Source: a virus (Duplodnaviria; Heunggongvirae; Uroviricota; Caudoviricetes; Crassvirales). From it: 64,000 nt of DNA. The DNA is taken from IMG/VR virus record IMGVR_UViG_3300034082_001032; one strand, given 5' to 3'. The notes below the pieces were generated by a model. That model did not search any database and had not been told where the DNA came from. It worked only from the letters and a program-made list of their open reading frames with translations. The position numbers were made by a program, and so were the translations under genes. Shown one piece after another: positions 3,938 through 63,074 of the stretch (positions are counted from its first letter, which is position 1; each line of letters begins with the position of its first letter).

Positions 3938-4595
3938 ATCCGTGTTTTGTTATAAAGGTATTAAAATCACCCTTGAATTTCTTTGTTCCTATGTGGTTGA
4001 GTGTAATGGTTGGATCTAACCACACCTTATATCCTAAGGATTTCCACTTGTTACAAAGGATGTAGTCTTCAGATATAAGATCACCATTCTCCACCTTTAT
4101 GTCACACACCATTCTATGCTTTTCACCTTCACTCATATACTCATCACTTATATCCCAAAGCTTCTCCAATGCAAATCTACTTATTTTGAGGAAGCCAGTA
4201 CCTACACCATCCACTTCTATAAGCTTTTCATCCTTAGACTTCTTAAGAGTTTTGTCCATCAACTTCACTGTATACCCCTCATTCTTATCACTCTTTTTTA
4301 CAAGAGCCCCACCTATAAATGGTTCTGGTCTATCCAAAAGCCTGAAAAACCATTCTGGTTCCCATTCAGCATCAGAATCTATAAAGAACAGATCGTCATA
4401 CCCTCCCTCCATAGCAAGTCTAAATAGACTGTTTCTAGCTCTTTGGATGAGACTGTCATAGCTTGTATAGATGGCGTGGACAAATATTTCCTTTTCATAA
4501 GCCAGTTTAACCGTACCCAAGAGCGAGTTTGCAAACCAAACATCTATCCTTCCATCATATGAGGGTGTACCTATGAGCACTCTACGCATAGGCAA
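3930..4595 (-). CDS. GT-A fold glycosyltransferase (DxD type)
   Basis: 'VLIGTPSYDGR' at the N-terminus, a 'FFIDSDAEW' DxD motif and 'EDYILCNKWKSLGYKVWLDP' resemble GT2/GT25-like GT-A enzymes. It overlaps the upstream GT4 start by 8 nt. Confidence 0.5.
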   Translation of the reverse strand: MPMRRVLIGTPSYDGRIDVWFANSLLGTVKLAYEKEIFVHAIYTSYDSLIQRARNSLFRLAMEGGYDDLFFIDSDAEWEPEWFFRLLDRPEPFIGGALVKKSDKNEGYTVKLMDKTLKKSKDEKLIEVDGVGTGFLKISRFALEKLWDISDEYMSEGEKHRMVCDIKVENGDLISEDYILCNKWKSLGYKVWLDPTITLNHIGTKKFKGDFNTFITKHGYV

Positions 4596-4607: not shown

Positions 4608-7600
4608 TTATTTATTTCCACAACTTTTTTCTAGATTTTCCACTCTTCCATCTAGCTCTTGTATAGCTTTGATAATTGGTGCTATGAGTTCTTCATATGT
4701 TACACGATAGGCATCTTTATCTTCATCATGTCCCAGAGCATCAAACTTTACTCCTAGCTCATCTATAGCAGCTTTCACATCCTGAGCTATCACTCCATAA
4801 TGTTCTCTTACACCAGACAGCGTACCATCTTTTGTTCCATACTCAAACCCACACTCCTTAACATAGTTATCACGGTTGTCCCAATTGTAGGTTACAGGCT
4901 TAATCTTCTTAATGAAGTTGAGACCTAAACCATCTGGAAGAGGTTTAATATTTGTCTTATCACGACAGTCTGACACTACAGACCAAGCTGCATATACGCA
5001 GTTGCAAACGTTGTTGTTTGCGTTACCCCATACGGTGTGATTATCTATTGCAGAAGTTGTAGCGTTGTCTCCTATAACAATATTATTATCTGTACCAGCA
5101 TAAAAGTTAGCAGCAGAACTATTACCAATTGCAATATTATACTTACCGTTGCTATTAAATTGCATTGCAAACTGCCCAACGGCAATATTTGCTCTACCTA
5201 CATCATTAGAATTTAAAGCTCTATCTCCAACAGCTGTATTCCAAAGACCAGTAGTGTTGAGATTTAAAGCGCCTTTACCTACTGCAGTATTTCCTGCACC
5301 TGTTGTATTACAGCGTAATGCACAGAATCCCATTGCTGTGTTGCCGTAACCAATAGTGTTACAGGAGAGCGCTAGGTTTCCAGTAGCGGTGTTTTGATAT
5401 CCAGTAGTATTAGCTTTTAATGCGCAAAATCCTACTGCTGTATTATCGGATGCTGTATTTGCTTGTAGAGAATAAAACCCTACAGCAGTATTACCGCCTC
5501 CAGTAACGTTTTGTTGTAGTGATGAATATCCAACAGCAGTGTTATTTATTCCTGTTGTATTAGTAAATAGAGCTGTTCTACCAAATGCAGAGTTTCCTGT
5601 GCCTGATGTGTTTGAATATAATGTTCTGTCACCTACTGCTGTTAAATACCTGCCTGTATTTACTCTTAAAGCGCTTCTACCTATTGCTACGTTATTACAG
5701 CCTGTTGTGTTACATCTAAGAGCTTCAACACCTATAGATATATTATTGACTGCAGTTGTATTTTTTTCTGAAGCAAGTCTACCAATAGCTATATTGAGAG
5801 TTCCTGTAGTGTTACTTGCTAATGCTAAAGAACCAATAGCAGTATTGTCACTTCCTATTGTATTTGCTTCTAATGCACAGACTCCTACTGCTACGTTGTC
5901 TATACCAGTAGTAGTACTTCTTAATGCACAAAAACCAACTGCTGTGTTGTTTGAGGCTGTGTTTGAATAGAGGGCTTGAAGACCTACTGCTGTATTATTA
6001 CTACCTACAGTATTAGAATTTAAGGCATTTACACCTACAGCAGTATTACAAACACCTGTTGTGTTACTAAACAATGCATTAACACCTAATCCTGTGTTTT
6101 GGTTTCCTATTGTATTGCAAACTAATGCTCTACAGCCCAACGCTGTATTGTATGCACCAGTAGTATTACTTCTTAATGAGCAGAAACCTACTGCTGTATT
6201 GTTTGATGCTGTGTTACATCTTAACGAGTCAACACCTATAGCAGTATTAGAAGTACCAACAGTATTAGCAAACAAACTAGCAACACCCACCGCGGTATTA
6301 TTAGCACCTGTGGTATTATAAAGTAATGAGTATCTGTTTATTGCTGTGTTATTACCGCCTGAAGTGTTATTAACTAATGAGCAAAAACCTATAGAGACAT
6401 TTGAACCACCAATTGTATTAGATAATAAAGCATTACCTCCTATTGCTACATTACTAGTACCAGTAGTATTACTTCTTAATGCACAGAACCCGACTGCTGT
6501 GTTGTTTGATGCTAAATTACATTCAAGAGCTCTTGTTCCAAGAGCAGTATTACACGCTCCAACTAAGTTTTGTGTAAGTGCTTCTCTACCAATTGCTACG
6601 TTGTTAACACCTGTAGTATTTTTATACAGTGCTGTTTGACCCATAGCGGTGTTATTAGCACCTACTGTGTTATTTGCTAATGCTGAATTACCAAAAGCAT
6701 TGTTGTTGTATCCTGTTGTATTATTGAAAAGAGCTCCATGACCAAACGCTGCATTATTTATACCTACTGTATTAGAAAATAATGCTTGTAAACCAACAGC
6801 CGTGTTTGAAGTACCTGTTGTATTACTCCTTAAAGCTTGTAAACCAACTGCTGTGTTATTTGATGCTGTATTGCAAAGTAATGCACTTCTGCCTAAGGCT
6901 GTATTGTTAAGACCTACAGTATTAGAATATAAAGCATCTACACCTACAGCTGTATTAGCGGCACCTGTCGTATTATTTTTAAGTGAGCTTACACCAATAG
7001 TAACGTTATATGCACCTGTTGTATTACTTCTTAATGCACAAAAACCGACTGCTGTATTGGCTGATGCTGTGTTGCAATAAAGTGATTGATGGCCAATAGC
7101 AGTATTGTTAACACCTGCTGTATTGCATAATAACGATTGTAAACCTATAGCAGTATTGCATGTTCCTGACAAGTTATATTGTAATGCACCTCCGCCCACT
7201 GCAATATTTCCTACACCTATTGTATTTTTTGTTAATGCTCTTACACCCACTGCTGTATTACTAATACCAGTAGTGTTACATGCTAAAGTAAAATATCCGA
7301 CAGCAGTGTTATATGATGCTGTATTTTTATACAACGAACCCTGACCAATAGCTGTATTACGATTTCCTATTAAATTATTCTGTAAAGCATTAGCACCGAT
7401 TGCTATATTTCGTTCACCAGATGTGTTTGAAGATAATGCATCGGTACCTATAGCTGTATTAACTGTACCAGTTGTATTACTTCTTAATGCACAGAACCCG
7501 ACTGCTGTGTTGTTTGAGGCTGTGTTGGCAAACAAAGCGTTTCTACCAAGAGCAGTGTTATTAGTACCTACAACGTTAGTGTATAAGGCAAGTGTACCGA

Positions 7601-10600
7601 CTGCTGTGTTATTAGTTCCAGTCGTATTATTTTCTAGTGCACTTGTTCCTATCGCAACGTTAGCACAGGCAGTAGTGTTTTTTCTTAATGCATAAGGACC
7701 TAAAGCTATGTTACTGTTTCCTGTGGTATTACTTCTTAACGCACAGAATCCAACTGCTGTATTGTTTGATGCTGTGTTTTGACGAAGGGCAAAGAAACCC
7801 ATCGCTACATTACTGTTTCCTGTTGTATTATACCTAAGTGCTGAAGATCCAACTACAGTGTTGTAACATCCTGTTGTGTTACAGCAGGAAGAAAGTGTAC
7901 CTATAGACGTGTTATCAAGTCCTCTTGTGTTACATTGTAGTGTTCTGTACCCAACAGCTGTATTACTATATCCTGTGGTATTACTAAGAAGTGTATTAAA
8001 TCCAACTGCTGTATTAAATACTCCTGTTGTATTATTTCTTAATGCGCTAGCACCTACTGCTGTGTTGGATGATGCTGTATTTAAACAAAGTGCATGTACA
8101 CCTAATGCTATGTTATTACCTCCTACAGTATTACATCGTAGTGCGTTTACTCCTACTGCTAAGTTACAATTACCGGTTGTATTACCTATAAGTGCATAAA
8201 ATCCTAATGCTGAGTTGTAGGTGCCTATAGTATTAGAAGCTAGAGAACTTCTTCCTATAGCTGTGTTATAAGTACCAGTAGTATTGCTTCTTAATGCACA
8301 GAATCCGACTGCTGTGTTGTTTGAGGCTGTGTTACAGTATAAAGCATTAATTCCAATAGCTAAATTGCAATTACCAGTTGTATTACAAAACAAAGCGTTT
8401 AATCCAACTGCTATATTATTTGTACCTACTGTATTATACCTTAATGTACTGGCACCTATTGCGGTATTCGTTGCACCTGATGTATTATTAAGTAAAGATA
8501 AACCTCCTATTGCTACGTTACTAGCACCTACTGTATTGTTTGATAAAGTTAGCCTACCTACTGCTGTGTTGTCTGTACCAGTAGTATTATTTCTTAACGC
8601 ACTAAATCCTAATGCTGTGTTATTTGATGCTGTGTTTAAGTTTAATGCTTCTCTACCAACAGCTGTATTGCTGTTTCCAACAGTATTACATATTAAAGCA
8701 CCTTGACCAACAGCAGTATTTGAAATACCGGTTGTATTTTTATAAAGAGATTGATGACCTACAGCTGTATTACCTGTTCCTGAAGTATTGGCTCTTAGGG
8801 CTTGGGAACCCATAGCTGTGTTAAAAGTACCTATATTGTTATTTCTTAAAGCATATAATCCAACAGCTGTGTTTTGTACTCCTGTAGAATTGTATTGTAG
8901 AGCATTAGTTCCTACTATTGTGTTAGAAGCAATACTTCCACCACCCTTACCAACATCAACACCACTGCCACCAACTAGGTTGACACATAGGTCACCGTTA
9001 GTCTTTTGACATGTTTTACTATCGCCAATTGTTGTAGATGATGTAAACTTCACTATATATTCTGGCGTACCAGCTACAGCTACAGATGTACCACTTGAAC
9101 CTGCTGTTCCTGAAGAGCCACTAGTTCCTGTTGTTCCAGAGGTTCCAGATGTGGCACTGCTTCCGCTTGTTCCACTAGTTCCTCCTGAGCCATTAGTGCC
9201 TGAAGTGCCTGCAGTTCCGCTAGTTCCACTGCTTCCTGCTGTTCCTGAGCTACCAGCAGTGCCAGAAGATCCAGAAGTTCCTGATGTACCACCAGTACCG
9301 TTTGTTCCACTTGTACCACTAGATCCAGACAATCCGCTAGTTCCAGAAGTACCTGTTGTACCGCTTGTACCTGTAGTGCCAGATGTACCACTAGTTCCTG
9401 TAGTGCCGCTAGAGCCTGATGTACCAGATGTACCTGGACTACCTGCTGTACCAGCTGTACCAGATGATCCTGAGCTACCAGAGCTTCCACTAGATCCACT
9501 TGATCCAGCACTACCGTTTGTACCAGATGTGCCAGATGTACCAGAGGTGGCAGAAGATCCACTAGAACCGCTTGATCCTGATGTGGCTGATGTTCCACTT
9601 GAACCAGATGTACCTGTGGTACCACTTGTACCAGATGTTCCACCTGTTCCATTGGTGCCACTTGTACCTGAGCTTCCAGAGGTTGCACTTGTACCGCTTG
9701 TACCAGAAGAACCTGCTGTTCCAGATGTGCCTGTAGTTCCACTGGTTCCGCTTGTTCCTCCAGACCCATTAGTTCCTGAAGTGCCTGAAGAGCCAGAGGT
9801 ACCACTAGTTCCTGTGGTGCCCGAAGTACCCGTAGTTCCAGATGTTCCACTAGTAGCGCTGGTTCCAGATGTACCAGGACTGCCAGATGTACCAGATGTA
9901 CCTGTAGTTCCTGAAGACCCACTTGATCCTGAGGTACCTGTAGTGCCCGAAGTGCCTGCTGTTGCAGACGTACCACTTGTACCTGATGATCCACTTGAAC
10001 CATCTCCCCCTGTAGCACCATCAAGGTTTACTTGCCATGTGCTATATGTACCAGACCCTGTAAGCCTAAATACAATAAAGCTCAATGAGCCAGTTGCTGG
10101 GTTATAAGATGTAACCTCAGCTTCTACGTGATTGTTAGCATCGTAGGCAACAATAATAGACTGAGCAATTGTATATGCTAATCCTGTTCCCACTGTAATA
10201 GTTCCCGTTGTACCTACAGCTCCTAATGTATATGTTGATGTTGATGTTGTGGCAAATCTATCACCACTCAAACCTGAAGATCCAGATGTACCTGTTGTTC
10301 CTGCTGTACCAGAAGTACCTGATGTAGCACTTGTTCCACTAGTTCCGCTAGTTGCACTTGTTCCTGAAGTGCCCCCAGATCCATTTGTGCCACTAGTACC
10401 ACTCGTTCCTGATGTGCCTGTGGTACCACTAGTTCCTCCAGTACCATTAGTTCCACTTGTTCCGCTGGTTGCAGATGTTCCAGAAGTTCCACTAGACCCT
10501 GACGTTCCACTAGTACCAGTTGTTCCTGATGTTCCAGCGGTACCAGAAGTCCCTGTAGTTCCACTACTTCCTGATGTTCCACTAGTTCCACTACTACCAG

Positions 10601-12380
10601 CTGAACCATTTGTTCCAGATGTACCACTCGTACCAGCAGTTCCTGATGTACCAGTAGTTCCACTTGAGCCAGAAGATCCTGAGCTTCCAGATGAACCACT
10701 TGTAGCACTCGTACCACTTGTACCAGATGTTCCTGCAGAACCGTTAGTTCCAGAAGATCCTGATGAACCTGAAGTGGCAGATGTACCTGATGTACCGCTT
10801 GTTCCTCCTGAACCATCCGTACCAGAGATGCCAGATGTTCCTGATGTTCCACTAGTTGCAGAGGTTCCTGAGGTACCTGTAGTACCACTAGTTCCTGATG
10901 TTGCACTAGTTCCATCTGTTCCTGATGAGCCAGATGTACCGCTTGTACCACCACTACCATCAGTACCAGATGAACCACTTGTTCCACTGGTGCCACTAGA
11001 CCCACTAGTTCCTGTTGTACCACTAGTTCCACTAGTTGCTGACGTACCTGATGTACCACTTGTACCCCCTGTTCCATCTGTAGCACTAGTTCCGCTTGTA
11101 CCACTTGTTGCAGAAGTGCCAGAGGTTCCAGACGTACCTGTACTACCAGAGGTTCCAGAACTACCAGAGGTTCCTGTCGTTCCAGAAGTACCCGTGGTAC
11201 CAGAGGTTCCTGTAGTGCCTGAGGTTCCTGATGTTCCTGATGTAGCACTTGTTCCACTACTACCACTAGTTCCTGTAGTGCCACTTGTACCACTAGATCC
11301 AGAGGTAGATGAGCTTCCTGAACTTCCTGATGTACCTGTTGTACCAGAGCTACCTGAGGTTCCACTTGTTCCAGAACTTCCTGCAGTTCCAGATGTTGTA
11401 ACTGGAAAAATTGCTAGAGCACCATCTCCTCTAATATATTCAGATGTATTACCTGTTGCAACAATATTAATTGTTCCAAAGCTTGTAATTGGAGGAGTGG
11501 TTACAGAAAATGCAGGAGGAACTGCTGCCTGTACACTTGTAACTGTACCAACATTAAAAGTTCTATCTGCAGTGAGATCTCTAGTGACACCATTGATTGT
11601 AATAGTTCTAGAGTCTGGAACTGGTGTATATCCCAATAATCCAATAATGTCTCCAGCTGTCAAGGGAGCAGCGGAGGTTACCAATCCTTTTGCGTTTACA
11701 GCAAACTTTAGAGGTGTATTTGATCCATACACATTACTGTTAACTGTAGCAAGGGTGGTTGTCAGAGGAACTCCTGTGTTACCAACACCAGAAACATCTC
11801 CTTGGAGAATGATGATGTCTGATGGGAGATTGATTGGTACTGGTGTAATGTTTGTTACTAATCCTTTACCGTTCACTGTTACAACAGGAACAGTTGTAGA
11901 AGATCCAAATGTTCCTGGAGAAACATTCACAGTGGCTAGTGTAAATGGAACACTGCCTGGACCAGATGCTGTACCATCACCAGTGAGGTTGGTGATGTAA
12001 TTACCAGCAGGCTGGTAAGATGTTGAATCTAAAGATCCATCTCCTTTAACAAAATCATTAGAAGTTCCACCTGTTGTAATGAAAGCAGCAGTTTCAATAG
12101 ACCCTGTAAGGGTAAATGTATATCCTGCACTATTGATTACTGTATCTTCTATAAGAGCACCCCCTAGTTTTACTGGTTGACCAGGAGAAAGTTGAATGAT
12201 TCCGTTGTCAAATATATACCCAATAGTAGCATCTTGAAACTTAGCATCGATCTTTTCGAGTGCAGTTTGCAAGTTGTCATTAGTATTAATGCCTGTATAT
12301 ATCAAATTCTCACCTTCGTAAAATACGCAAGTGGCATTTAATATAACAGGACAAGGAGTTGCTTCACAACCAACAATCAT
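4608..12380 (-). CDS. Giant mosaic tail fibre (2590 aa): N-terminal Cys-motif anchor, collagen-like G-S/T triplet blocks, ~70 x 17-aa YadA-head-like repeats, C-terminal peptidase-S74 intramolecular chaperone domain
   Basis: N-terminus 'CEATPCPVILNATCVFYEGENLIY..NDNLQTALEKID' is shared with four other ORFs. There are long runs of GTSGTSGSSGTTG triplets. The repeat unit is 'NTAVGxxALxxNTxGxx' (Hep_Hag-like). The C-terminus 'WSVVSDCRDKTNIKPL...VTYNWD...GVIAQDV' matches the S74 endosialidase-type chaperone 'SDxRxK'. Confidence 0.85.
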   Translation of the reverse strand: MIVGCEATPCPVILNATCVFYEGENLIYTGINTNDNLQTALEKIDAKFQDATIGYIFDNGIIQLSPGQPVKLGGALIEDTVINSAGYTFTLTGSIETAAFITTGGTSNDFVKGDGSLDSTSYQPAGNYITNLTGDGTASGPGSVPFTLATVNVSPGTFGSSTTVPVVTVNGKGLVTNITPVPINLPSDIIILQGDVSGVGNTGVPLTTTLATVNSNVYGSNTPLKFAVNAKGLVTSAAPLTAGDIIGLLGYTPVPDSRTITINGVTRDLTADRTFNVGTVTSVQAAVPPAFSVTTPPITSFGTINIVATGNTSEYIRGDGALAIFPVTTSGTAGSSGTSGTSGSSGTTGTSGSSGSSSTSGSSGTSGTTGTSGSSGTSATSGTSGTSGTTGTSGTTGTSGTTGTSGSSGTSGSTGTSGTSGTSATSGTSGTSATDGTGGTSGTSGTSATSGTSGTTGTSGSSGTSGTSGSSGTDGSGGTSGTSGSSGTDGTSATSGTSGTTGTSGTSATSGTSGTSGISGTDGSGGTSGTSGTSATSGSSGSSGTNGSAGTSGTSGTSATSGSSGSSGSSGSSGTTGTSGTAGTSGTSGTNGSAGSSGTSGTSGSSGTTGTSGTAGTSGTTGTSGTSGSSGTSGTSATSGTSGTNGTGGTSGTTGTSGTSGTSGTNGSGGTSGTSATSGTSGTSATSGTSGTAGTTGTSGSSGLSGDRFATTSTSTYTLGAVGTTGTITVGTGLAYTIAQSIIVAYDANNHVEAEVTSYNPATGSLSFIVFRLTGSGTYSTWQVNLDGATGGDGSSGSSGTSGTSATAGTSGTTGTSGSSGSSGTTGTSGTSGSPGTSGTSATSGTSGTTGTSGTTGTSGTSGSSGTSGTNGSGGTSGTSGTTGTSGTAGSSGTSGTSATSGSSGTSGTNGTGGTSGTSGTTGTSGSSGTSATSGSSGSSGSSATSGTSGTSGTNGSAGSSGSSGSSGSSGSSGTAGTAGSPGTSGTSGSSGTTGTSGTSGTTGTSGTTGTSGTSGLSGSSGTSGTNGTGGTSGTSGSSGTAGSSGTAGSSGTSGTAGTSGTNGSGGTSGTSGSSATSGTSGTTGTSGSSGTAGSSGTSVAVAGTPEYIVKFTSSTTIGDSKTCQKTNGDLCVNLVGGSGVDVGKGGGSIASNTIVGTNALQYNSTGVQNTAVGLYALRNNNIGTFNTAMGSQALRANTSGTGNTAVGHQSLYKNTTGISNTAVGQGALICNTVGNSNTAVGREALNLNTASNNTALGFSALRNNTTGTDNTAVGRLTLSNNTVGASNVAIGGLSLLNNTSGATNTAIGASTLRYNTVGTNNIAVGLNALFCNTTGNCNLAIGINALYCNTASNNTAVGFCALRSNTTGTYNTAIGRSSLASNTIGTYNSALGFYALIGNTTGNCNLAVGVNALRCNTVGGNNIALGVHALCLNTASSNTAVGASALRNNTTGVFNTAVGFNTLLSNTTGYSNTAVGYRTLQCNTRGLDNTSIGTLSSCCNTTGCYNTVVGSSALRYNTTGNSNVAMGFFALRQNTASNNTAVGFCALRSNTTGNSNIALGPYALRKNTTACANVAIGTSALENNTTGTNNTAVGTLALYTNVVGTNNTALGRNALFANTASNNTAVGFCALRSNTTGTVNTAIGTDALSSNTSGERNIAIGANALQNNLIGNRNTAIGQGSLYKNTASYNTAVGYFTLACNTTGISNTAVGVRALTKNTIGVGNIAVGGGALQYNLSGTCNTAIGLQSLLCNTAGVNNTAIGHQSLYCNTASANTAVGFCALRSNTTGAYNVTIGVSSLKNNTTGAANTAVGVDALYSNTVGLNNTALGRSALLCNTASNNTAVGLQALRSNTTGTSNTAVGLQALFSNTVGINNAAFGHGALFNNTTGYNNNAFGNSALANNTVGANNTAMGQTALYKNTTGVNNVAIGREALTQNLVGACNTALGTRALECNLASNNTAVGFCALRSNTTGTSNVAIGGNALLSNTIGGSNVSIGFCSLVNNTSGGNNTAINRYSLLYNTTGANNTAVGVASLFANTVGTSNTAIGVDSLRCNTASNNTAVGFCSLRSNTTGAYNTALGCRALVCNTIGNQNTGLGVNALFSNTTGVCNTAVGVNALNSNTVGSNNTAVGLQALYSNTASNNTAVGFCALRSTTTGIDNVAVGVCALEANTIGSDNTAIGSLALASNTTGTLNIAIGRLASEKNTTAVNNISIGVEALRCNTTGCNNVAIGRSALRVNTGRYLTAVGDRTLYSNTSGTGNSAFGRTALFTNTTGINNTAVGYSSLQQNVTGGGNTAVGFYSLQANTASDNTAVGFCALKANTTGYQNTATGNLALSCNTIGYGNTAMGFCALRCNTTGAGNTAVGKGALNLNTTGLWNTAVGDRALNSNDVGRANIAVGQFAMQFNSNGKYNIAIGNSSAANFYAGTDNNIVIGDNATTSAIDNHTVWGNANNNVCNCVYAAWSVVSDCRDKTNIKPLPDGLGLNFIKKIKPVTYNWDNRDNYVKECGFEYGTKDGTLSGVREHYGVIAQDVKAAIDELGVKFDALGHDEDKDAYRVTYEELIAPIIKAIQELDGRVENLEKSCGNK
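5210..8870 (-). repeat. About 70 tandem 51-nt (17-codon) repeats encoding 'NTAVGxxALxxNTxGxx' beta-roll units inside the fibre gene
   Basis: The periodicity is visible in the protein. The off-frame plus-strand ORFs (5149..8815) translate to recurring 'PTAVLxxPVVL' shadows. Confidence 0.8.
9080..11400 (-). repeat. Two blocks of collagen-like Gly-X-Y triplet repeats (X,Y mostly Ser/Thr) in the fibre gene; highly repetitive DNA
   Basis: Protein GTS/GSS/GTT triplets for about 600 residues. The shadow ORFs 9151..10107(+), 10249..12000(+), 9080..10024(-) and 10268..11365(-) are all low-complexity VPLVP/QVQLV frames. Confidence 0.8.
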
Positions 12381-46003: not shown

Positions 46004-46144
46004 AACTCAATAATTTGGTTAAAATTACAGTAAAGGTATAAATGTTTTTGAAATTCTCCAAATTTATTTAACTGAACAAGTTATCTATTGTAATCAAATT
46101 GATTATAAATAAAACCCCCACCCTAGAAAGGGCAGGGGAAACAC

Positions 46145-46182
46145 CCTGTAAAACCAACAAAACAGGGTTTTTAATATTAACG
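46145..46182. terminator. Intergenic hairpin 'CCCTGT-aaaaccaacaaaa-ACAGGG' followed by TTTTT; an imperfect GC hairpin (cccctgccc/gggtgggg) sits just upstream and is followed by a T-run on the minus strand
   Basis: Seen directly in sequence. It lies between the stop of gene 46205..46540(-) and the start of gene 44750..46003(-). It is one of few GC-rich spots in an AT-rich genome. Confidence 0.35.
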
Positions 46183-50562: not shown

Positions 50563-51527
50563 ACAGAAGCTAGTTTTTTACTTTTAAGTTTTTGTTCAAG
50601 GGTAAGCAGTTCATCCTGATTATCATCATCAGCAAGGAATTTTACCAAATCTTCTTCATCCTTTGCCACTTCAAACTCACCTTCGTAAATTTTTCCATTA
50701 GGCTTAAGCCTGTATACAGAATGCGTCAGAGCTTGCTTTACCAAATCTTTAATATGGAGTAAGTTTTCTTTCATGTCAGCAAACCTGTTGAAAATCTCAA
50801 CTGGATTCAATCCTTGATATTTTCCGTTTTTGAATTCTGTTTGTTTAAGAACGTTATCAACTTGATTGTATACAGAATCTTCTCTAGAATCATCTGTAAC
50901 AGGAAGACCTAACAACCTTGCAACTTTTCTCTTCTTCTCAGGAGTCATTGAATCAAACTTCACAATAGCCTTATTGATGAGCTGTTTCTTTTTGAACACT
51001 ACAGCATTTTCAATATCTTCATCAGCTACATAGAACTGAGTGTCAGCAGGAAATTCACCACGCTCCCAAGCTTGATAGCTAGAAGCAATTGTTGGATGAA
51101 CTCTAAGCCATGCAAATGCAAGTTCTTGAAGAGGAACAGAGATATCAAAATAGTTATCTCCATCTATCAATTTTACAGGCTGTACATGCAATGTATCATC
51201 TGTAGATGTAGAGAGTCCATAATTCCAGAACTTAGAACGTGGTCCAAGATCAATTCCTCCAAGAGCATTTTGAAGCTTTTCACAAAGTTCTGTAACTCGT
51301 TCAACCTCAATTTCTCTTTCTGTAGGATCTGAAATTCTACGGATGTAGGATGCTTCAGGATTAAGTCCTGTCCTATACTGACCATCAAGTTCCTTGTATG
51401 GATACTTGAACACGCCTGTACCAGGTATTCTTGTAAGTCCTCTTTGTGCTAGACCACTTTGCATTGTTTGCAATTGTGTGCTATTGTAATCTCTTTTGAT
51501 TGTGGAAATTTTTCCTGTCTTACCCAT
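50559..51527 (-). CDS. Hypothetical head/neck protein (322 aa)
   Basis: Intact ORF, first gene after the MCP intergenic region. Confidence 0.45.
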   Translation of the reverse strand: MGKTGKISTIKRDYNSTQLQTMQSGLAQRGLTRIPGTGVFKYPYKELDGQYRTGLNPEASYIRRISDPTEREIEVERVTELCEKLQNALGGIDLGPRSKFWNYGLSTSTDDTLHVQPVKLIDGDNYFDISVPLQELAFAWLRVHPTIASSYQAWERGEFPADTQFYVADEDIENAVVFKKKQLINKAIVKFDSMTPEKKRKVARLLGLPVTDDSREDSVYNQVDNVLKQTEFKNGKYQGLNPVEIFNRFADMKENLLHIKDLVKQALTHSVYRLKPNGKIYEGEFEVAKDEEDLVKFLADDDNQDELLTLEQKLKSKKLASV

Positions 51528-51672
51528 TTTATGTAGTTTTGATTTGGTTTATAAAAAGTTGACTTTTCTATTTACACTTACCCATATGTAGTTTAAGTTG
51601 CAGAGTGCTTCCACTGAAGGAGTAGCGAATGGGAGACACCCCAATCCAACACTCTGTAGTTTGAGAAGAGCA

Positions 51673-51693
51673 CCCCCACAGGGAACGTGGGGG
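51673..51693 (-). terminator. GC-rich hairpin 'CCCCCAC-agggaac-GTGGGGG' downstream of the MCP stop (terminator or attenuator candidate)
   Basis: 7-bp perfect GC stem located 50-70 nt after the stop of the major capsid gene. The trailing minus-strand sequence, UGCUCUUCUC, is only moderately U-rich. Confidence 0.35.
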
Positions 51694-51716
51694 GCAATCT
51701 CTTCTCGGTATAGGGT

Positions 51717-51735
51717 CTAGGAATACTATTCCTAG
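51717..51735. promoter_or_regulatory. Perfect 19-nt palindrome CTAGGAATA-C-TATTCCTAG
   Basis: Seen directly, 9+1+9 with no mismatches, immediately after the MCP stop codon. It is a candidate dimeric-protein operator or RNA hairpin. Confidence 0.35.
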
Positions 51736-51744
51736 AGTGGATCC

Positions 51745-53335: not shown

Positions 53336-54577
53336 TTAAATAAACCACGAGTTTGGCTTACTAGGTTTACTTGATTTCACTGAAGCTTTACTAGCTTGTC
53401 TAGCAACTTCACCAAACAATTCATTTGACTTTTTGGTGATGCCAGTCTTTTGAATCGTAGAAAGGGTGGGATCTTTTTCAATGATCTTTAGAAGAAGGGC
53501 AACCTTCACTTTCATTTCATGATTCTCTGGACGCTTCAGATCTAGGATGGTACGATCAAAGTCTGTGAGCTTTTCACCAGAGCTTGTTTTGTACTTATCA
53601 ACTAGAAGGAAATCTTGTAGTTCACCAGCAAGTTTGGGATTGATGGGAATCCCGTCAAATTCTTTTGCTTTGAGTTTCTCTTGCAAAACAGTTTGAACGT
53701 TATTTACATATTGCTGTTTATAAGCAGCTTGTTGTTGTAATTGTACTTCTTGTTCCTGTTCCATTTTAGCCAGCTTAGCTGACTCTTTTTTTACTAGCAC
53801 CTTGTGGTGTTTTGCTGCAACAGTTTCAAGATCACCGTAGTTTTTCAGACGCTCCACTTCTGTAGTGATGTCTTCAGGATCAAAGCCCTGATCTTCAAGA
53901 GCTTGTTTTATAACTGCCACTTGATTATTCTCTTGTGACAGATCCATTTCTGAAAAATTCTGTATTTGATTATATGTACCGAAATATTCTTTGGGGTCAA
54001 CACCCTTTACAAAGATGGCATCAAAGGCTTGTTGGTAATCTTCACCAAACTGTCCAATGAAATTGTTAACCACCTCAATTGCACCTTTTTTCTTTTCTGA
54101 GTTAAATCTTTCAAGGAATTCTTCAGCTGTAGAGATTGTTACATCTTCTTCTTCGTCATCCTTGGAGAATACGCCCAGTTTGAAAAGGTCTCTAGATAGA
54201 GCTGTGAATTGGGAAACCTCTTCTTCAGCTTCTTCACCATCTTTAGTTTCTTCAGCAGCAACTTCTTTCTTAACAGGAGCAGAAGGTGTTTCGTTATTAT
54301 CATCATCTTCTTCTGTATCTTCTCCGTACAGAAAACTTTGAATGTCAACAGTTTCTTCCTTCTTTTCTTCTTCTTTAGGTGCAGCAGCAGTTTTTGCTGA
54401 AGCCTTCTTTTCAGGAGCAGGAGCTGGTTCGTTGATATCTTTGATATCATCAGGGTTTCCTGTAGCGGTTTCTGGTCCCATCAAATCATTTAATAGATCT
54501 GTGTTGCCCATTCCCATTTCCATGGTGTCCTGAATACTGAAGTTCCCAAATTGGGGATTATCTAGATTTTCGGCCAT
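53336..54577 (-). CDS. Scaffolding-like protein (413 aa): acidic low-complexity N-half, coiled-coil, basic C-terminus
   Basis: 'EEEKKEETVD', 'EDTEEDDDNNETP' and 'EEAEEEVSQ' acidic tracts. 'KLAKMEQEQEVQLQQQAAYKQQ' coiled coil. C-terminal 'KASVKSSKPSKPNSWFI'. It lies between portal and MCP. Confidence 0.45.
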   Translation of the reverse strand: MAENLDNPQFGNFSIQDTMEMGMGNTDLLNDLMGPETATGNPDDIKDINEPAPAPEKKASAKTAAAPKEEEKKEETVDIQSFLYGEDTEEDDDNNETPSAPVKKEVAAEETKDGEEAEEEVSQFTALSRDLFKLGVFSKDDEEEDVTISTAEEFLERFNSEKKKGAIEVVNNFIGQFGEDYQQAFDAIFVKGVDPKEYFGTYNQIQNFSEMDLSQENNQVAVIKQALEDQGFDPEDITTEVERLKNYGDLETVAAKHHKVLVKKESAKLAKMEQEQEVQLQQQAAYKQQYVNNVQTVLQEKLKAKEFDGIPINPKLAGELQDFLLVDKYKTSSGEKLTDFDRTILDLKRPENHEMKVKVALLLKIIEKDPTLSTIQKTGITKKSNELFGEVARQASKASVKSSKPSKPNSWFI

Positions 54578-54605: not shown

Positions 54606-54636
54606 ACAAAAGTATAGTAGTTTAATTTATTAGCAA
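54606..54636 (-). promoter_or_regulatory. Bacteroidetes sigmaA-type promoter candidate (TTTG-N19-TACTTTTG) for the scaffold/capsid block
   Basis: Minus strand reads ...cTTTGctaataaattaaactactaTACTTTTGtattgaaaaccaattaaatagaactacATG. The -33 TTTG falls at 54633..54636 (plus) and the -7 TAnnTTTG at 54606..54613, with a 19-nt spacer and about 26 nt to the start codon. Confidence 0.5.
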
Positions 54637-54695
54637 AGAGAACGAACACTATATACCCCAATTTTGAAGATAATATAGCATTAATATTTTTTACT

Positions 54696-61879: not shown

Positions 61880-61957
61880 ATTTAGATGTCTAATACAAAG
61901 ATAGGAGGAATTAAATCATTGACAAATAACCACTTACATTATTTAATACACTAATTG

Positions 61958-62206: not shown

Positions 62207-62244
62207 AATAAACCTATTTTAATTCATAACCCACCCACCGCCCT

Positions 62245-62280
62245 CAAAGGTATGTCCATTTACAATAGCTACCAAAAACT
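62245..62280 (-). promoter_or_regulatory. Bacteroidetes sigmaA-type promoter candidate (TTTG-N20-TACCTTTG) driving the leftward (late/structural) unit
   Basis: Minus strand reads gttTTTGgtagctattgtaaatggacaTACCTTTGagg. The -7 box falls at plus 62245..62252 and the -33 TTTG in 'ccaaaaac' (plus ~62272..62277). Confidence 0.45.
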
Positions 62281-62290
62281 TTTTTTTTTA

Positions 62291-62318
62291 AAAACCCCCC
62301 ACCCCCCTTGTAGAAGGG
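62291..62318. repeat. GC-rich element AAAACCCCCCACCCCCCTTGTAGAAGGG, a paralogue of the element at 46111..46135 (AAAACCCCCACCCTAGAAAGGG)
   Basis: The two intergenic copies share 'AAAACCCCC(C)ACCC...TAGAA(A)GGG'. Both can fold CCC...GGG hairpins. Confidence 0.45.
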
Positions 62319-62364
62319 AGAGGAGGCTACTCCACATAGCAACCCCCATCTACAGATTGGGAGT

Positions 62365-62375
62365 GGAGACACCCC
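62365..62375. repeat. 11-mer GGAGACACCCC (also at 51632..51642), preceded in both copies by TGGGAG
   Basis: The exact 11-mer is shared between two intergenic regions of an AT-rich genome. Confidence 0.45.
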
Positions 62376-62414
62376 CCGTCAATCATTTTTTAACAAATTT
62401 AAATCGAAAAGCAA

Positions 62415-62814: not shown

Positions 62815-62853
62815 GAGTTCCTCACTAATCACAGTGGGGAACTCATTTTGTTT
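62815..62853 (+). terminator. Rho-independent terminator candidate
   Basis: GAGTTCC-(16-nt loop)-GGAACTC stem followed by ATTTTGTTT, 8 nt after the stop of 62415..62807. Confidence 0.45.
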
Positions 62854-63074
62854 AACGTTAACTAAAATAAACACGGGTTTTTTGAGGTTTGCGTTAAACA
62901 AAACATGCTATTATATATATGGGTGGGTGTTATGTAACACTTTGGGTGGGGATATTAAGCACGAAATAGATGGTGTAAACACTCTACATGCCTGTTAATC
63001 ACTTGATTAGACAGTTGAAACCAAGGATATTACAACAAAATATATAGCATTATTCATCAATTAAACCAATAGTT

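Follow-up and report, generated by a model that had tools for sequence, protein, structure and literature searches.

G/C-rich intergenic motifs of an uncultured crAss-like phage as candidate parts of separate transcript start and end signals

Primary-sigma promoters of Bacteroidetes combine a -33 TTTG box with a -7 TAnnTTTG box. At transcript ends, tRNA-like processing signals are found in plant mitochondrial t-elements, MALAT1 mascRNA and mitochondrial tRNA punctuation, and T7 early mRNAs carry 3' stabilizing hairpins and RNase III sites between genes. Few known viruses are as abundant as the crAss-like phages; to our knowledge, their non-coding signals are almost unmapped. In the crAss-like phage phi14:2, middle and late promoters belong to the host RNA polymerase (RNAP) (bioRxiv 10.1101/2020.03.07.982082). 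Early transcripts of phi14:2 share no common upstream motif, its gp66 prefers single-stranded templates, and its most abundant transcript is that of the capsid. The crAss-type virion RNA polymerase has no known promoter motif. A catalogue of structured RNAs from IMG/VR holds 8495 candidates, tRNA-like ones and terminators included (PMC10690425), and sequences of the (GGGT)n type fold into parallel quadruplexes of very high stability (PMC3818834, PMC3594281).

We analyzed a 64,000-nt stretch of DNA (the window) from an uncultured crAss-like phage. Its capsid protein matches Pfam Crass_capsid and the genes neighboring the capsid gene match CrAss_Ring_1/2; portal and terminase are also present, a 3839-aa ORF carries DFDID, and an HU-like gene (PF00216) adjoins the switch region. 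The host is probably a member of the Bacteroidota. An SD-like motif was seen in 1 of 38 gene leaders, which are 50% A. Megablast for close cultured relatives gave 0 matches, a protein search among isolate phages returned a cyanophage (26% identity) as its sole match, and a pattern search for relatives of a 130-aa early protein found none. Relatives of the switch region were gathered via the HU-like protein. ARAGORN detected no tRNA or tmRNA in the window. Rfam searches at gathering thresholds returned no known RNA family for the window and five related loci, and at E up to 10 gave only noise in three regions.

An earlier note had grouped several GC-rich intergenic motifs of this DNA into one family reused across the genome. 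Our analysis indicates that the motifs are very probably G/C-rich parts of at least four unrelated signals for transcript start or end, and all of them make sense on the transcribed strand only. The individual sightings were mostly sound. The exact 11-mer GGAGACACCCC occurs twice, at 51632-51642 and 62365-62375, both on the plus strand; allowing one mismatch added no matches (expected 0.25; two were reached in 4 of 100 shuffles). The TGGGAG said to precede both copies does so loosely, lying one base upstream at 62358-62363 but overlapping the 11-mer at 51630. Across 2000 shuffles that kept local composition, a GC-rich 11-mer common to two intergenic regions arose in 1.15%, against 77% for any 11-mer, so the repeat is mildly non-random in what was a post hoc test. 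The second element recurs as described, at 46111-46132 and 62291-62318 (0 of 100 shuffles). CCCACCC has six occurrences where 2.2 would be expected (a count reached in 3 of 100 shuffles), at 46117, 62230 and 62298 and, on the minus strand, at 53464, 62921 and 62944; the site at 53464 falls within a gene. Recurrence of CCCACCC/GGGTGGG at 62231 and 62925-62950 is real, but the run listed with them at 51673 is CACCCCCAC, not CCCACCC. Conspicuousness between genes was likewise borne out: the density of G or C runs is about 15-fold higher between genes than within coding DNA, with 8 of 18 runs of at least 5 nt falling in the 3.2 kb (5%) that is intergenic. The unifying claim fared differently. A covariance model of the element around the first 11-mer has a single match (72 bits; the runner-up scores 13), and the three motif classes have no common core beyond G or C runs and sit in different elements.

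A Y-shaped RNA after the major capsid gene

The first 11-mer falls within a 63-nt predicted Y-shaped RNA with a three-way junction (the Y element; 51597..51659, minus strand), to which our covariance model R1 assigns an E value of 8e-19; this is the only R1 match in the window. Its 7-bp closing stem, P1, pairs 51650-51656 with 51601-51607; arm a (51627-51646) bears the 11-mer at its tip, and arm b (51610-51621) ends in the loop UUCAGU, all on the minus strand. One copy was found in each of 80 of 80 related contigs (51-82 bits), in every case 75-225 nt past the capsid gene. The model matched once in 437 kb of other regions of related phages, at the post-capsid site of a contig already counted. 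A pattern search added 79 loci; the capsid gene ends 69-225 nt upstream on the same strand in 76 of them, and the remaining three are cut by a contig end. The element invariably occupies the spacer that separates the capsid gene from its downstream neighbor, 75 to ~480 nt from the capsid stop codon and ~30 to ~115 nt from the next start codon.

The alignment argues strongly for the fold. Overall, 96.6% of cells are paired and compensatory changes occur at 16 of 18 base pairs; none of 500 shuffles was as good, and shifted controls were 30-47% paired. P1 is 97.5% paired over its seven pairs, with compensatory changes in five. Arm a contains G-U pairs (33 of 58 at one position) that fit the sense strand only. 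Arm b has a 6-nt UUCRRU loop in 52 of 58 variants, with A or G (G in ~40%) at position 5, a stem of 3-5 bp and 1-2 nt to P1. Arm a is freely variable: the UGUC loop appears in 22 of 58 variants and the arm shifts through compensatory changes, so that the 11-mer is not a conserved sequence within the element. In L162 and L169 arm a is cut to 3 bp and P1 and arm b persist.

Because it is single-copy, position-bound and strongly covarying, the Y element can be proposed on solid grounds as a candidate new RNA family, as far as comparative sequence evidence goes. It is absent from Rfam 15 and appears undescribed as judged against that release. Transfer RNA models did not recognize it, either RF00005 (79-nt search, E up to 10) or ARAGORN. 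A pattern search of GTDB genomes gave one match, within an ORF and unmatched by the model, and we rejected this as a bacterial Y element. Two further ideas were discarded: another Y element in the switch region, since a full-sensitivity model search of the window returned only the post-capsid hit, and loop-loop pairing of arms a and b, since variants with other loops do not compensate. In more distant relatives the post-capsid slot contains a plain intrinsic terminator or other hairpins; in L164, L165 and L166 a terminator is all that it holds.

Two hairpins accompany the Y element in the capsid-gene 3' region. H1 (51716..51736, minus strand) is variable and directly follows the stop codon. 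H2 (51663..51706, minus strand) is long and stable; its top stem CACCCCCAC/GTGGGGGG is the element listed earlier at 51673. The 217-nt spacer folds at -66.1 kcal/mol (z = -4.4), and most of 58 distinct relatives are predicted to form an equivalent of H2 (-21 to -29 kcal/mol); those without one have an insertion between H2 and Y. The base of H2 (GAGAAGAG/CUCUUCUC) is conserved and its top variable. Neither H2 nor Y is followed by a U-run.

The first 11-mer would thus be the tip of arm a in a three-way-junction RNA of the capsid mRNA 3' UTR, beside H2. The role we tentatively favor for the Y element, as possible rather than probable, is that of a tRNA-like signal that may direct processing of the capsid mRNA or set its 3' end. 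As a punctuation signal, it would be cut by tRNA-processing nucleases or would otherwise define the 3' end; H2 would then cap the very abundant capsid mRNA, which would no longer be coupled to downstream genes. Recruitment of tRNA-processing enzymes, if true, would account for the separation of the capsid mRNA from the ~60-kb late operon. The 7-bp P1 is acceptor-like, and together with a 4-5-bp arm bearing the UUCRRU loop it somewhat resembles an acceptor stem with its T-arm. The element lies between cistrons, and in four relatives a tRNA-Met follows 6-9 nt downstream. A tRNA T-loop has 7 nt and A58, unlike the arm b loop with 6 nt and G at position 5 in ~40% of variants. Retention of Y beside a true tRNA argues against a purely redundant processing signal.

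Terminators, late promoters and the switch region

Read as its reverse complement, the second flagged element, AAAACCCCCACCC..TAGAAAGGG, gives two predicted intrinsic terminators. T2 (46105..46138, minus strand; terminator scan), the reverse complement of AAAACCCCCACCCTAGAAAGGG as previously listed, reads CCCCUGCCC-UUUCUA-GGGUGGGGG followed by UUUUAUUUAU. Its hairpin (46115-46138) has 10 pairs, 7 of them G-C, and UUUUAUUUAU stands directly 3'. An alignment of 14 relatives shows compensation in the stem, for example CCCCUGGGC/GCCUGGGGG and CUCCCUGGGAC/GUCCUGGGGAG, with the T-run always 3'. Just upstream of T2, the T1 hairpin (46143..46173, minus strand) has a covarying stem and a near-invariant loop, UUUGUUGGUUUU; on the plus strand it reads as a hairpin followed by T5. 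Two-sided (compensatory) changes were found in 9 of the 16 pairs of T1/T2.

The terminator scan also marked a terminator-like hairpin at 62290..62317 (minus strand), CCUUCUAC-AAGGGGG-GUGGGGGG followed by UUUUU. Its reverse complement is the second AAAACCCCCCACCCC..TAGAAGGG copy, and the hairpin makes up the 3' end of a switch-region S element; it has 8 pairs at 62295-62317 with UUUUU directly 3'. A G-run followed by a U-run is found at this place in some relatives only. No gene is annotated ahead of the hairpin on its strand, and the late promoter comes downstream. The suggestion that the flagged motifs might be attenuators holds for the AAAACCCCC..TAGAAGGG pair, whose two copies each correspond to a predicted intrinsic terminator on the coding strand; at 46115 the stem is kept by compensation. 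Both would act on the late strand and presumably in one direction, because their G-rich 3' arms pair via many G-U wobbles, which leave the complementary strand unable to form the hairpin.

The pattern TTTG-N18-21-TAnnTTT[GA] matched five times in the window; four of these matches fall between genes, in sense orientation and ahead of a gene. TTTG-N20-TACCTTTA (46031..46062), kept in relatives, would serve the next unit downstream of T1/T2; TTTG-N20-TACCTTTG (62245..62276), kept in relatives as AAATAAATTTGG-N19-21-TAACTTTG, belongs to the late operon. The pattern search gave two more, without a G-box, at 54607..54637 and 61896..61926; all four are on the minus strand, and the match at 54607..54637 indicates that the late strand uses host-type promoters. 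Each of the four has both primary-sigma boxes, which the early element at 62913-62920 lacks. A host-type promoter (-33 TTTG, -7 TAnnTTTG) lies within 40-75 nt after each terminator, an arrangement that would form a cassette closing one unit and opening the next. The terminators and promoters of the window are themselves of ordinary kinds. The 11-mer and terminator motifs had also been proposed as phage RNAP promoters or HU/HTH binding sites. A role as phage RNAP promoters is not supported: they sit in late units of host-RNAP type and would act as RNA stems. We likewise saw no sign that HU or HTH proteins bind the flagged positions.

The second 11-mer belongs to hairpin A of the S element (62355..62384, minus strand; GAUUG-AC-GGGGGG-UGUC-UCC-AC-UCC-CAAUC). 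In relatives the same position reads GGGGG-AUA-CCCCC-AAC, with one occurrence per locus. The spelling seen in the window was found in no related IMG/VR contig, and the Y-element model gave no match at hairpin A. The second 11-mer is thus a variant form of a different conserved hairpin, and the identity of the two 11-mers is either chance or local sequence exchange; shuffling, at ~1%, leaves the coincidence only partly explained. With one Y element per window and per locus, and hairpin A once per locus, neither behaves as a dispersed repeat.

The center of the S element (62318..62354, minus strand), GGAG-UAGC-CUCC plus the C-rich CCUCCUCUCCC, is conserved in sequence in an alignment of 26 relatives. 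The RNAalifold consensus of these relatives is weak (-2.7 kcal/mol, one covarying pair) and we claim no structure from it; its orientation is taken from G-U pairs only, and Rfam returned no match. The idea of hairpin A as a repeated, N4-type hairpin promoter for the virion polymerase was set aside as speculation, the hairpin occurring once per locus. No comparable hairpin was found in the first 12 kb of phi14:2.

GGGTGGG boxes and competing explanations

A link to promoters, also suggested before, does hold for GGGTGGG, which lies directly 3' of the late -7 box and of a conserved early TATATA block. The late leader AGGGCGGUGGGUGGG (62230..62244, minus strand; the CCCACCC noted at 62231) is nearly invariant as TTTG-GGGGTGGTTGGGTGGG in ~20 relatives, even where the HU-like protein is only ~50% identical. 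The early twin G-box (62913..62951, plus strand) reads ATATATAT-GGGTGGG-(hairpin GTGTTA-TG-TAACAC)-TTT-GGGTGGGG. The pattern TATATAwA-GGGTGGG-N8-26-GGGTGGG was found in 93 IMG/VR stretches (88 distinct variants), always in the early direction and once per locus apart from L082, which has a tandem pair. In 75 of the 88 variants the element is closely preceded by a stable hairpin, and about one third have a hairpin between the boxes. Positions 62921-62951 fit a G-quadruplex motif of four tracts of at least three G (GGG-T-GGG-N16-GGG-T-GGGG), as do the 88 variants; we rejected a quadruplex at the late leader, with three G3 tracts and a GG only. The boxes would stand at the very start of two divergent units, late after the -7 box and early after a terminator, and are by position putative promoter-proximal or 5'-leader elements. 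The twin G-box appears undescribed and is a concrete candidate for this phage group's early promoter or leader.

The simplest alternative to separate signals is that all motifs are one site reused for a single factor, either a virion RNAP promoter or an HU/HTH site. The strong enrichment of G/C runs between genes, the exact GC-rich 11-mer in two intergenic regions and the HU-like gene beside the switch region are in keeping with it. We nevertheless consider it very improbable: the covariance model finds a single Y element, arm a is free in sequence while its pairing is kept, relatives have GGGGG-AUA-CCCCC in place of the switch-region 11-mer, the second motif is a hairpin with a U-run and compensatory changes (a terminator), and the classes lack a common core beyond G or C runs. 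A narrower proposal, which we regard as quite unlikely, is that the common 11-mer stems from recent gene conversion or from selection for one partner recognizing GAUUG..GGGGUGUCUCC..CAAUC. So GC-rich a match is rare among shuffles, the likeness extends beyond it (GATTG, GGGGTGTCTCC and CCCAATC follow in the same order in both hairpins), and the switch hairpin of the window differs even from that of its closest relative, L081. Against this, the test was post hoc, no second genome has the same pairing of variants, and both hairpins run as G-run, short loop, C-run and AAYC in relatives, which raises the chance of identity.

As for the capsid 3' region, Y and H2 might instead be a passive exonuclease barrier or leaky terminator, or a protein site regulating the capsid gene or the next one. 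The very stable spacer fold, the presence of H2 in most relatives, the plain terminator or simple hairpins in the slot of distant relatives and the retention of Y beside a true tRNA all agree with this, and a protein site would be consistent with the UG and GC nucleotides kept at the junction and with the conserved arm b loop. It is somewhat unlikely in our view, since a barrier needs no conserved three-way junction, fixed 7-bp stem or near-invariant UUCRRU loop; H2 and Y lack the U-run of the canonical terminators that the phage uses elsewhere; and the variable distances to the capsid stop and next start argue against a translation operator. The GGGTGGG boxes, finally, could be functional in themselves, as a virion-RNAP promoter or initiation region, a G-quadruplex, or a nut/put-like read-through RNA. 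They are invariant in 88 variants whose spacer (8-26 nt) and flanks vary; the early side lacks both the -33 TTTG and TAnnTTTG, and a terminator hairpin fills its -35 region; the late promoter is trailed by the same boxes, and both units have internal terminators. The stability of (GGGT)n parallel quadruplexes (PMC3818834, PMC3594281) and a crAss-type virion polymerase that lacks any known promoter motif fit as well. We judge such a function unlikely: the late copy comes after an ordinary host-type promoter and therefore cannot be specific to the virion polymerase, the late leader has only the three G3 tracts and a GG, and the inter-box hairpin occurs in only about a third of variants. Improbable is the fuller version in which the early element (terminator, TATATAwA-GGGTGGG-N8-26-GGGTGGG) would be the start signal of the virion RNAP together with a 5' leader whose G3 quadruplex or nut/put-like RNA, also at the late leader, would set the early/late switch or terminator read-through.

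Comparison with known systems

The window and its many uncultured relatives provide a regulatory map with host-type late promoters and putatively one-directional terminators paired with promoters. To this the map adds three conserved non-coding elements absent from Rfam, namely the Y element, the switch-region S element and the twin G-box. The four sense, intergenic promoter matches upstream of late genes, conserved in relatives, resemble Bacteroidetes and phi14:2 promoters; unlike these, the first late promoter bears a nearly invariant G-box leader on its 3' side, and the early TATATA-GGGTGGG element lacks both host boxes. The signal at 46105-46138, and probably that at 62290-62317, matches intrinsic (Rho-independent) terminators in having a G/C-rich stem-loop, then a U-run, at the end of a gene block with the next promoter following, and at 46105-46138 the stem is kept through compensatory changes. 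Their 3' arms, almost pure G plus one U with several G-U wobbles, are unlike those of typical intrinsic terminators.

The twin box shares with (GGGT)n quadruplexes and with lambda nut and HK022 put its two G3-T-G3 boxes, variable middle loop and place just downstream of a promoter, and G-box units hold internal terminators as the nut and put units do. Unlike nut and put, the G-boxes have no sequence similarity to those sites, and the late copy has only three full G3 tracts.

H2 resembles the 3' stabilizing hairpins of T7 in being long, stable, conserved, devoid of a U-run and placed after a very highly expressed gene. Unlike the T7 hairpins and RNase III sites, it is accompanied by a three-way-junction element. 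We found no description of a tRNA-like processing element of the Y kind in phage mRNA in the literature searched. The Y element differs from t-elements and mascRNA in not being a cloverleaf, as one long arm replaces the D and anticodon arms and the loop has 6 nt; no tRNA model recognizes it, and its cleavage is here a prediction. In common with the candidates of the IMG/VR catalogue (PMC10690425), it derives from IMG/VR data and carries covariation evidence. With t-elements, mascRNA and tRNA punctuation it shares a 7-bp closing stem, apparently stacked on a short arm with a UUCR.. loop, ~11-12 bp in all, and, as in tRNA punctuation, it lies between two cistrons, in a slot where relatives carry a real tRNA.

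Recurrent GC-rich motifs in the late arm

The window covers the greater part of a crAss-like phage's late (structural) arm, together with the switch into the early arm. Every long ORF between 314 and 62206 is on the minus strand; by PHROG matches, terminase, portal and major capsid protein are among the products. The capsid protein belongs to the Pfam family Crass_capsid, and CrAss_Ring_1/2 proteins lie nearby in a relative. A 3839-aa ORF contains DFDID, which is the catalytic motif in the virion RNA polymerase of phi14:2. No close cultured phage relative of the window was found. Gene leaders are A-rich, with a Shine-Dalgarno-like motif in only one of 38, and a pattern search indicated Bacteroidetes-type promoters on the late strand; we infer a host within the Bacteroidota. 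At 8001-12000, inside a 2590-aa ORF (4608-12380), G+C is 0.43-0.46 against ~0.35 elsewhere. In Cellulophaga phage phi14:2 itself (locus L289, NC_021806), ARAGORN called a tmRNA at 4031-4500 with the tag GSSVQKLAMVA and a textbook T-arm, GGGGG-TTCGAAT-CCCCC. This call falls within the g005-g006 region, reported by Drobysheva et al. as a highly expressed early 'long non-coding RNA', and Rfam models score below threshold there.

An earlier note had described a family of GC-rich intergenic motifs reused across this DNA, and its raw observation holds, with small inaccuracies. The 11-mer GGAGACACCCC is present at 51632 and 62365 and nowhere else in the window, even with one mismatch allowed. Some shared 11-mer arises in 77% of shuffles keeping local composition, and one equally GC-rich in ~1%. 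The second reported element does occur at both 46111 and 62291. CCCACCC/GGGTGGG is indeed recurrent (six occurrences, 2.2 expected), except that the instance placed at 51673 reads CACCCCCAC and the one at 53464 falls inside a gene. Intergenic DNA amounts to 3.2 kb and carries G or C runs of at least 5 nt at ~15 times the density of coding DNA. The features are real, non-random, intergenic, GC-rich and concerned with transcription, as had been proposed. They are not one motif family, being instead a mixture of two terminators, promoter-proximal G-boxes, capsid 3'-UTR stems and a variant of another conserved hairpin.

Terminators, late promoters and the switch region

A terminator scan identified terminator T2 at 46105-46138 (-), CCCCUGCCC-UUUCUA-GGGUGGGGG-UUUUAUUUAU, and a terminator-like hairpin in the switch region at 62290-62317 (-), CCUUCUAC-AAGGGGG-GUGGGGGG-UUUUU. 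T2 forms a tandem with a second hairpin, T1, and the two are kept in 22 distinct relatives, with compensatory changes in 9 of 16 pairs. The T2 stem sequences are very different among relatives, and a T-run always follows. The T1 stem (46143-46173, -; loci L128-L159) covaries and bears a near-invariant 12-nt loop, UUUGUUGGUUUU; because its opposite strand reads as a hairpin and then T5, T1 may stop antisense transcription. Approximately 45 nt downstream of T1/T2 lies a promoter, TTTG-N20-TACCTTTA, conserved in relatives. Five matches to TTTG-N18-21-TAnnTTT[GA] are present in the window; four (46031, 54607, 61896 and 62245) fall between genes, each placed upstream of a gene on the coding strand. 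The switch-region hairpin likewise precedes the first late promoter (62245-62276). Each hairpin thus precedes a promoter of the same class, and the two 'copies' of the second element are two similarly built terminators before two promoters.

The second 11-mer lies in hairpin A of the window, GAUUG-AC-GGGGGG-UGUC-UCC-AC-UCC-CAAUC, a spelling found in no related IMG/VR contig. This hairpin is part of the S element, a sequence-conserved stretch of ~95 nt with the first early gene on one side and the late promoter on the other (62291-62390, -; loci L081-L127), whose relatives were reached via the HU-like protein and via the late-leader pattern. In relatives, hairpin A (GGGGG-AUA-CCCCC-AAC; single per locus) is followed by a G-run, then by GGAG-UAGC-CUCC and a C-rich stretch, with a G-run and U-run often coming last. 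The whole S element is likewise single per locus. The consensus fold is weak, with little covariation, and there is no Rfam match. The S element stands on the template strand of the first early gene, 30 nt upstream of it, and may act as a small RNA, a leader or a signal at the DNA level. In many relatives, iteron-like repeats and a CACGTG palindrome lie beside it. Loci L096, L100, L103, L106, L108, L112, L113 and L118 have 2-5 such repeats (AGGGGGG.TGT.GTCAAG..ATAGCTTTAC) in the interval from the S element to the late promoter, together with a TTCCACGTGGAA palindrome and an A7T7 tract; this arrangement looks like a replication origin or an operator array. Only a remnant, ATGGACATA, is seen in the window, within the promoter spacer (62253-62272). 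In L162, 18 tRNA genes in two opposed blocks (77-2089) occupy the switch region, replacing both the S element and the G-box.

GGGTGGG boxes of the divergent units

Within the earlier finding, only the GGGTGGG boxes behave like a truly conserved motif at the sequence level. On the late side, AGGGCGGUGGGUGGG (62230-62244, -) directly follows the -7 box; the late leader of relatives, TTTG-GGGGTGGTTGGGTGGG, is almost invariant even with an HU-like protein only ~50% identical. The early pair, at 62921 and 62944, belongs to the twin G-box element (62913-62951, +), found in 93 IMG/VR stretches as 88 distinct variants. Its order is a stable hairpin with a T-run (75/88), TATATAwA, GGGTGGG, an 8-26-nt spacer and GGGTGGG, with neither a -33 TTTG nor a TAnnTTTG box. 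It always points in the early direction and occurs once per locus, except in L082, where two stand in tandem. About a third of variants (35%, vs 13% in shuffles) also have a small hairpin in the spacer.

Their position suggests that the boxes are promoter-proximal or 5'-leader elements of both divergent units. Service to the virion polymerase is one candidate role, but the host-type promoter ahead of the late copy speaks against a signal purely specific to that polymerase. A G-quadruplex (four G3 tracts with 1-nt loops) and antitermination are further candidates.

An inverted repeat, TTTTGTTTAACG..CGTTAAACAAAA around ACACGGGTTTTTT, lies upstream of the twin G-box in the window (62846-62903, +); the same module is downstream in L089, L105, L109, L114 and L126, and other relatives have a different conserved module after the G-box (AACTCATTGATTT..GTGAGTTAGAGAG). 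Other viral contigs (L097, L098, L120 and L123) carry CCTCCCCTTTGGGGAGG(T/C)TGGGTGGGGC, a hairpin plus G-box, in L120 just upstream of a gene start. The boxes may therefore have wider phage use.

A Y-shaped RNA downstream of the capsid gene

The post-capsid spacer (51528-51744) is read on the minus strand, as judged from its neighbouring genes. It folds at -66 kcal/mol (z = -4.4 vs shuffled sequence) into hairpins H1 (variable) and H2 (long) and a three-way junction, the Y element. At least 598 IMG/VR contigs encode a related capsid protein; among the best 80, which were compared, capsid identity is 95-100% and the spacers have nonetheless strongly diverged. Alignment of 57 distinct junction copies gave 18 pairs, with 96.5% of cells paired and compensatory changes in 16 pairs, reached by 0/500 shuffles; shifted controls were only 35-48% paired. 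The copies were chosen partly by pairing of the closing stem (P1), which makes this stem partly circular evidence; the two arms were not chosen by pairing. G-U pairs are compatible with the mRNA strand only.

A covariance model from this alignment found exactly one Y element in each of the 80 loci, a non-seed locus (60.8 bits) among them, always on the strand of the capsid gene, whose stop codon lies 75-225 nt upstream. The single copy in the window, 51597-51659 (-), scored 72 bits and the next best match 13 bits. Across 437 kb of other regions of related phages, the one match was the post-capsid site of an already counted contig. The core sequence pattern occurs in at least 119 IMG/VR contigs; in 76 of 79 new loci a same-strand capsid gene ends 69-225 nt upstream, and the remaining three are truncated at a contig end. 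Nothing real matched the pattern in 185,579 species-representative bacterial genomes, and Rfam and ARAGORN searches did not recognise the element. Its conserved core comprises the 7-bp closing stem, junction nucleotides UG and GC, and short arm b with a UUCRRU loop (52/58 variants). Arm a, whose tip is the first 11-mer (GGGGUGUCUCC on the minus strand), is variable, with a UGUC loop in only 22/58 variants and a stem altered by compensation. Arm a is down to ~3 bp in two more distant relatives (capsid 83-86% identical), which keep P1 and arm b.

A real tRNA-Met (CAT) gene lies on the capsid strand 6-9 nt downstream of the Y element in four relatives (L057 4728-4802, L069 4720-4791, L079 4777-4851 and L080 4736-4810), with the same A-rich leader, belonging to the next gene, beyond it. 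In L162 (83% capsid identity), a 151-aa ORF (11554-12009) is inserted between capsid gene and Y element; its encoded Cys and His pairs, inspected by eye, make it a homing-endonuclease candidate. Other relatives, at 82-83% capsid identity, have in this slot only an intrinsic terminator (L164, L165, L166) or H2-like hairpins (L163, L167, L168). The slot is therefore a modular '3' end of capsid message' region. The leader and start of the post-capsid gene (AAACTACATATGGGTAAG) are duplicated in the window (51577-51594 and 51522-51543, -), the upstream copy starting a 5-codon dead-end ORF (MGKCK*); L163 has a similar pseudo-start.

The Y element stands at varying distances from both neighbouring genes, which speaks against a translational operator. 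Of the phi14:2 transcripts, the capsid one is the most abundant. The Y core resembles the acceptor stem and T-arm of a tRNA, and we prefer to read the element as a tRNA-like punctuation signal: tRNA-processing nucleases would cut at it and detach the H2-capped capsid mRNA from the cistrons downstream. Against this stand an arm b loop of six nucleotides, not seven, a G at loop position 5 in ~40% of variants, the one or two nucleotides between arm b and P1, the failure of tRNA models to find the element, and its retention beside a true tRNA. A punctuation signal is only slightly more likely than a passive stabiliser or a protein site. Both the Y element and the twin G-box are robust, show wide conservation and have no Rfam entry; the terminators and host-type promoters are of known kinds.
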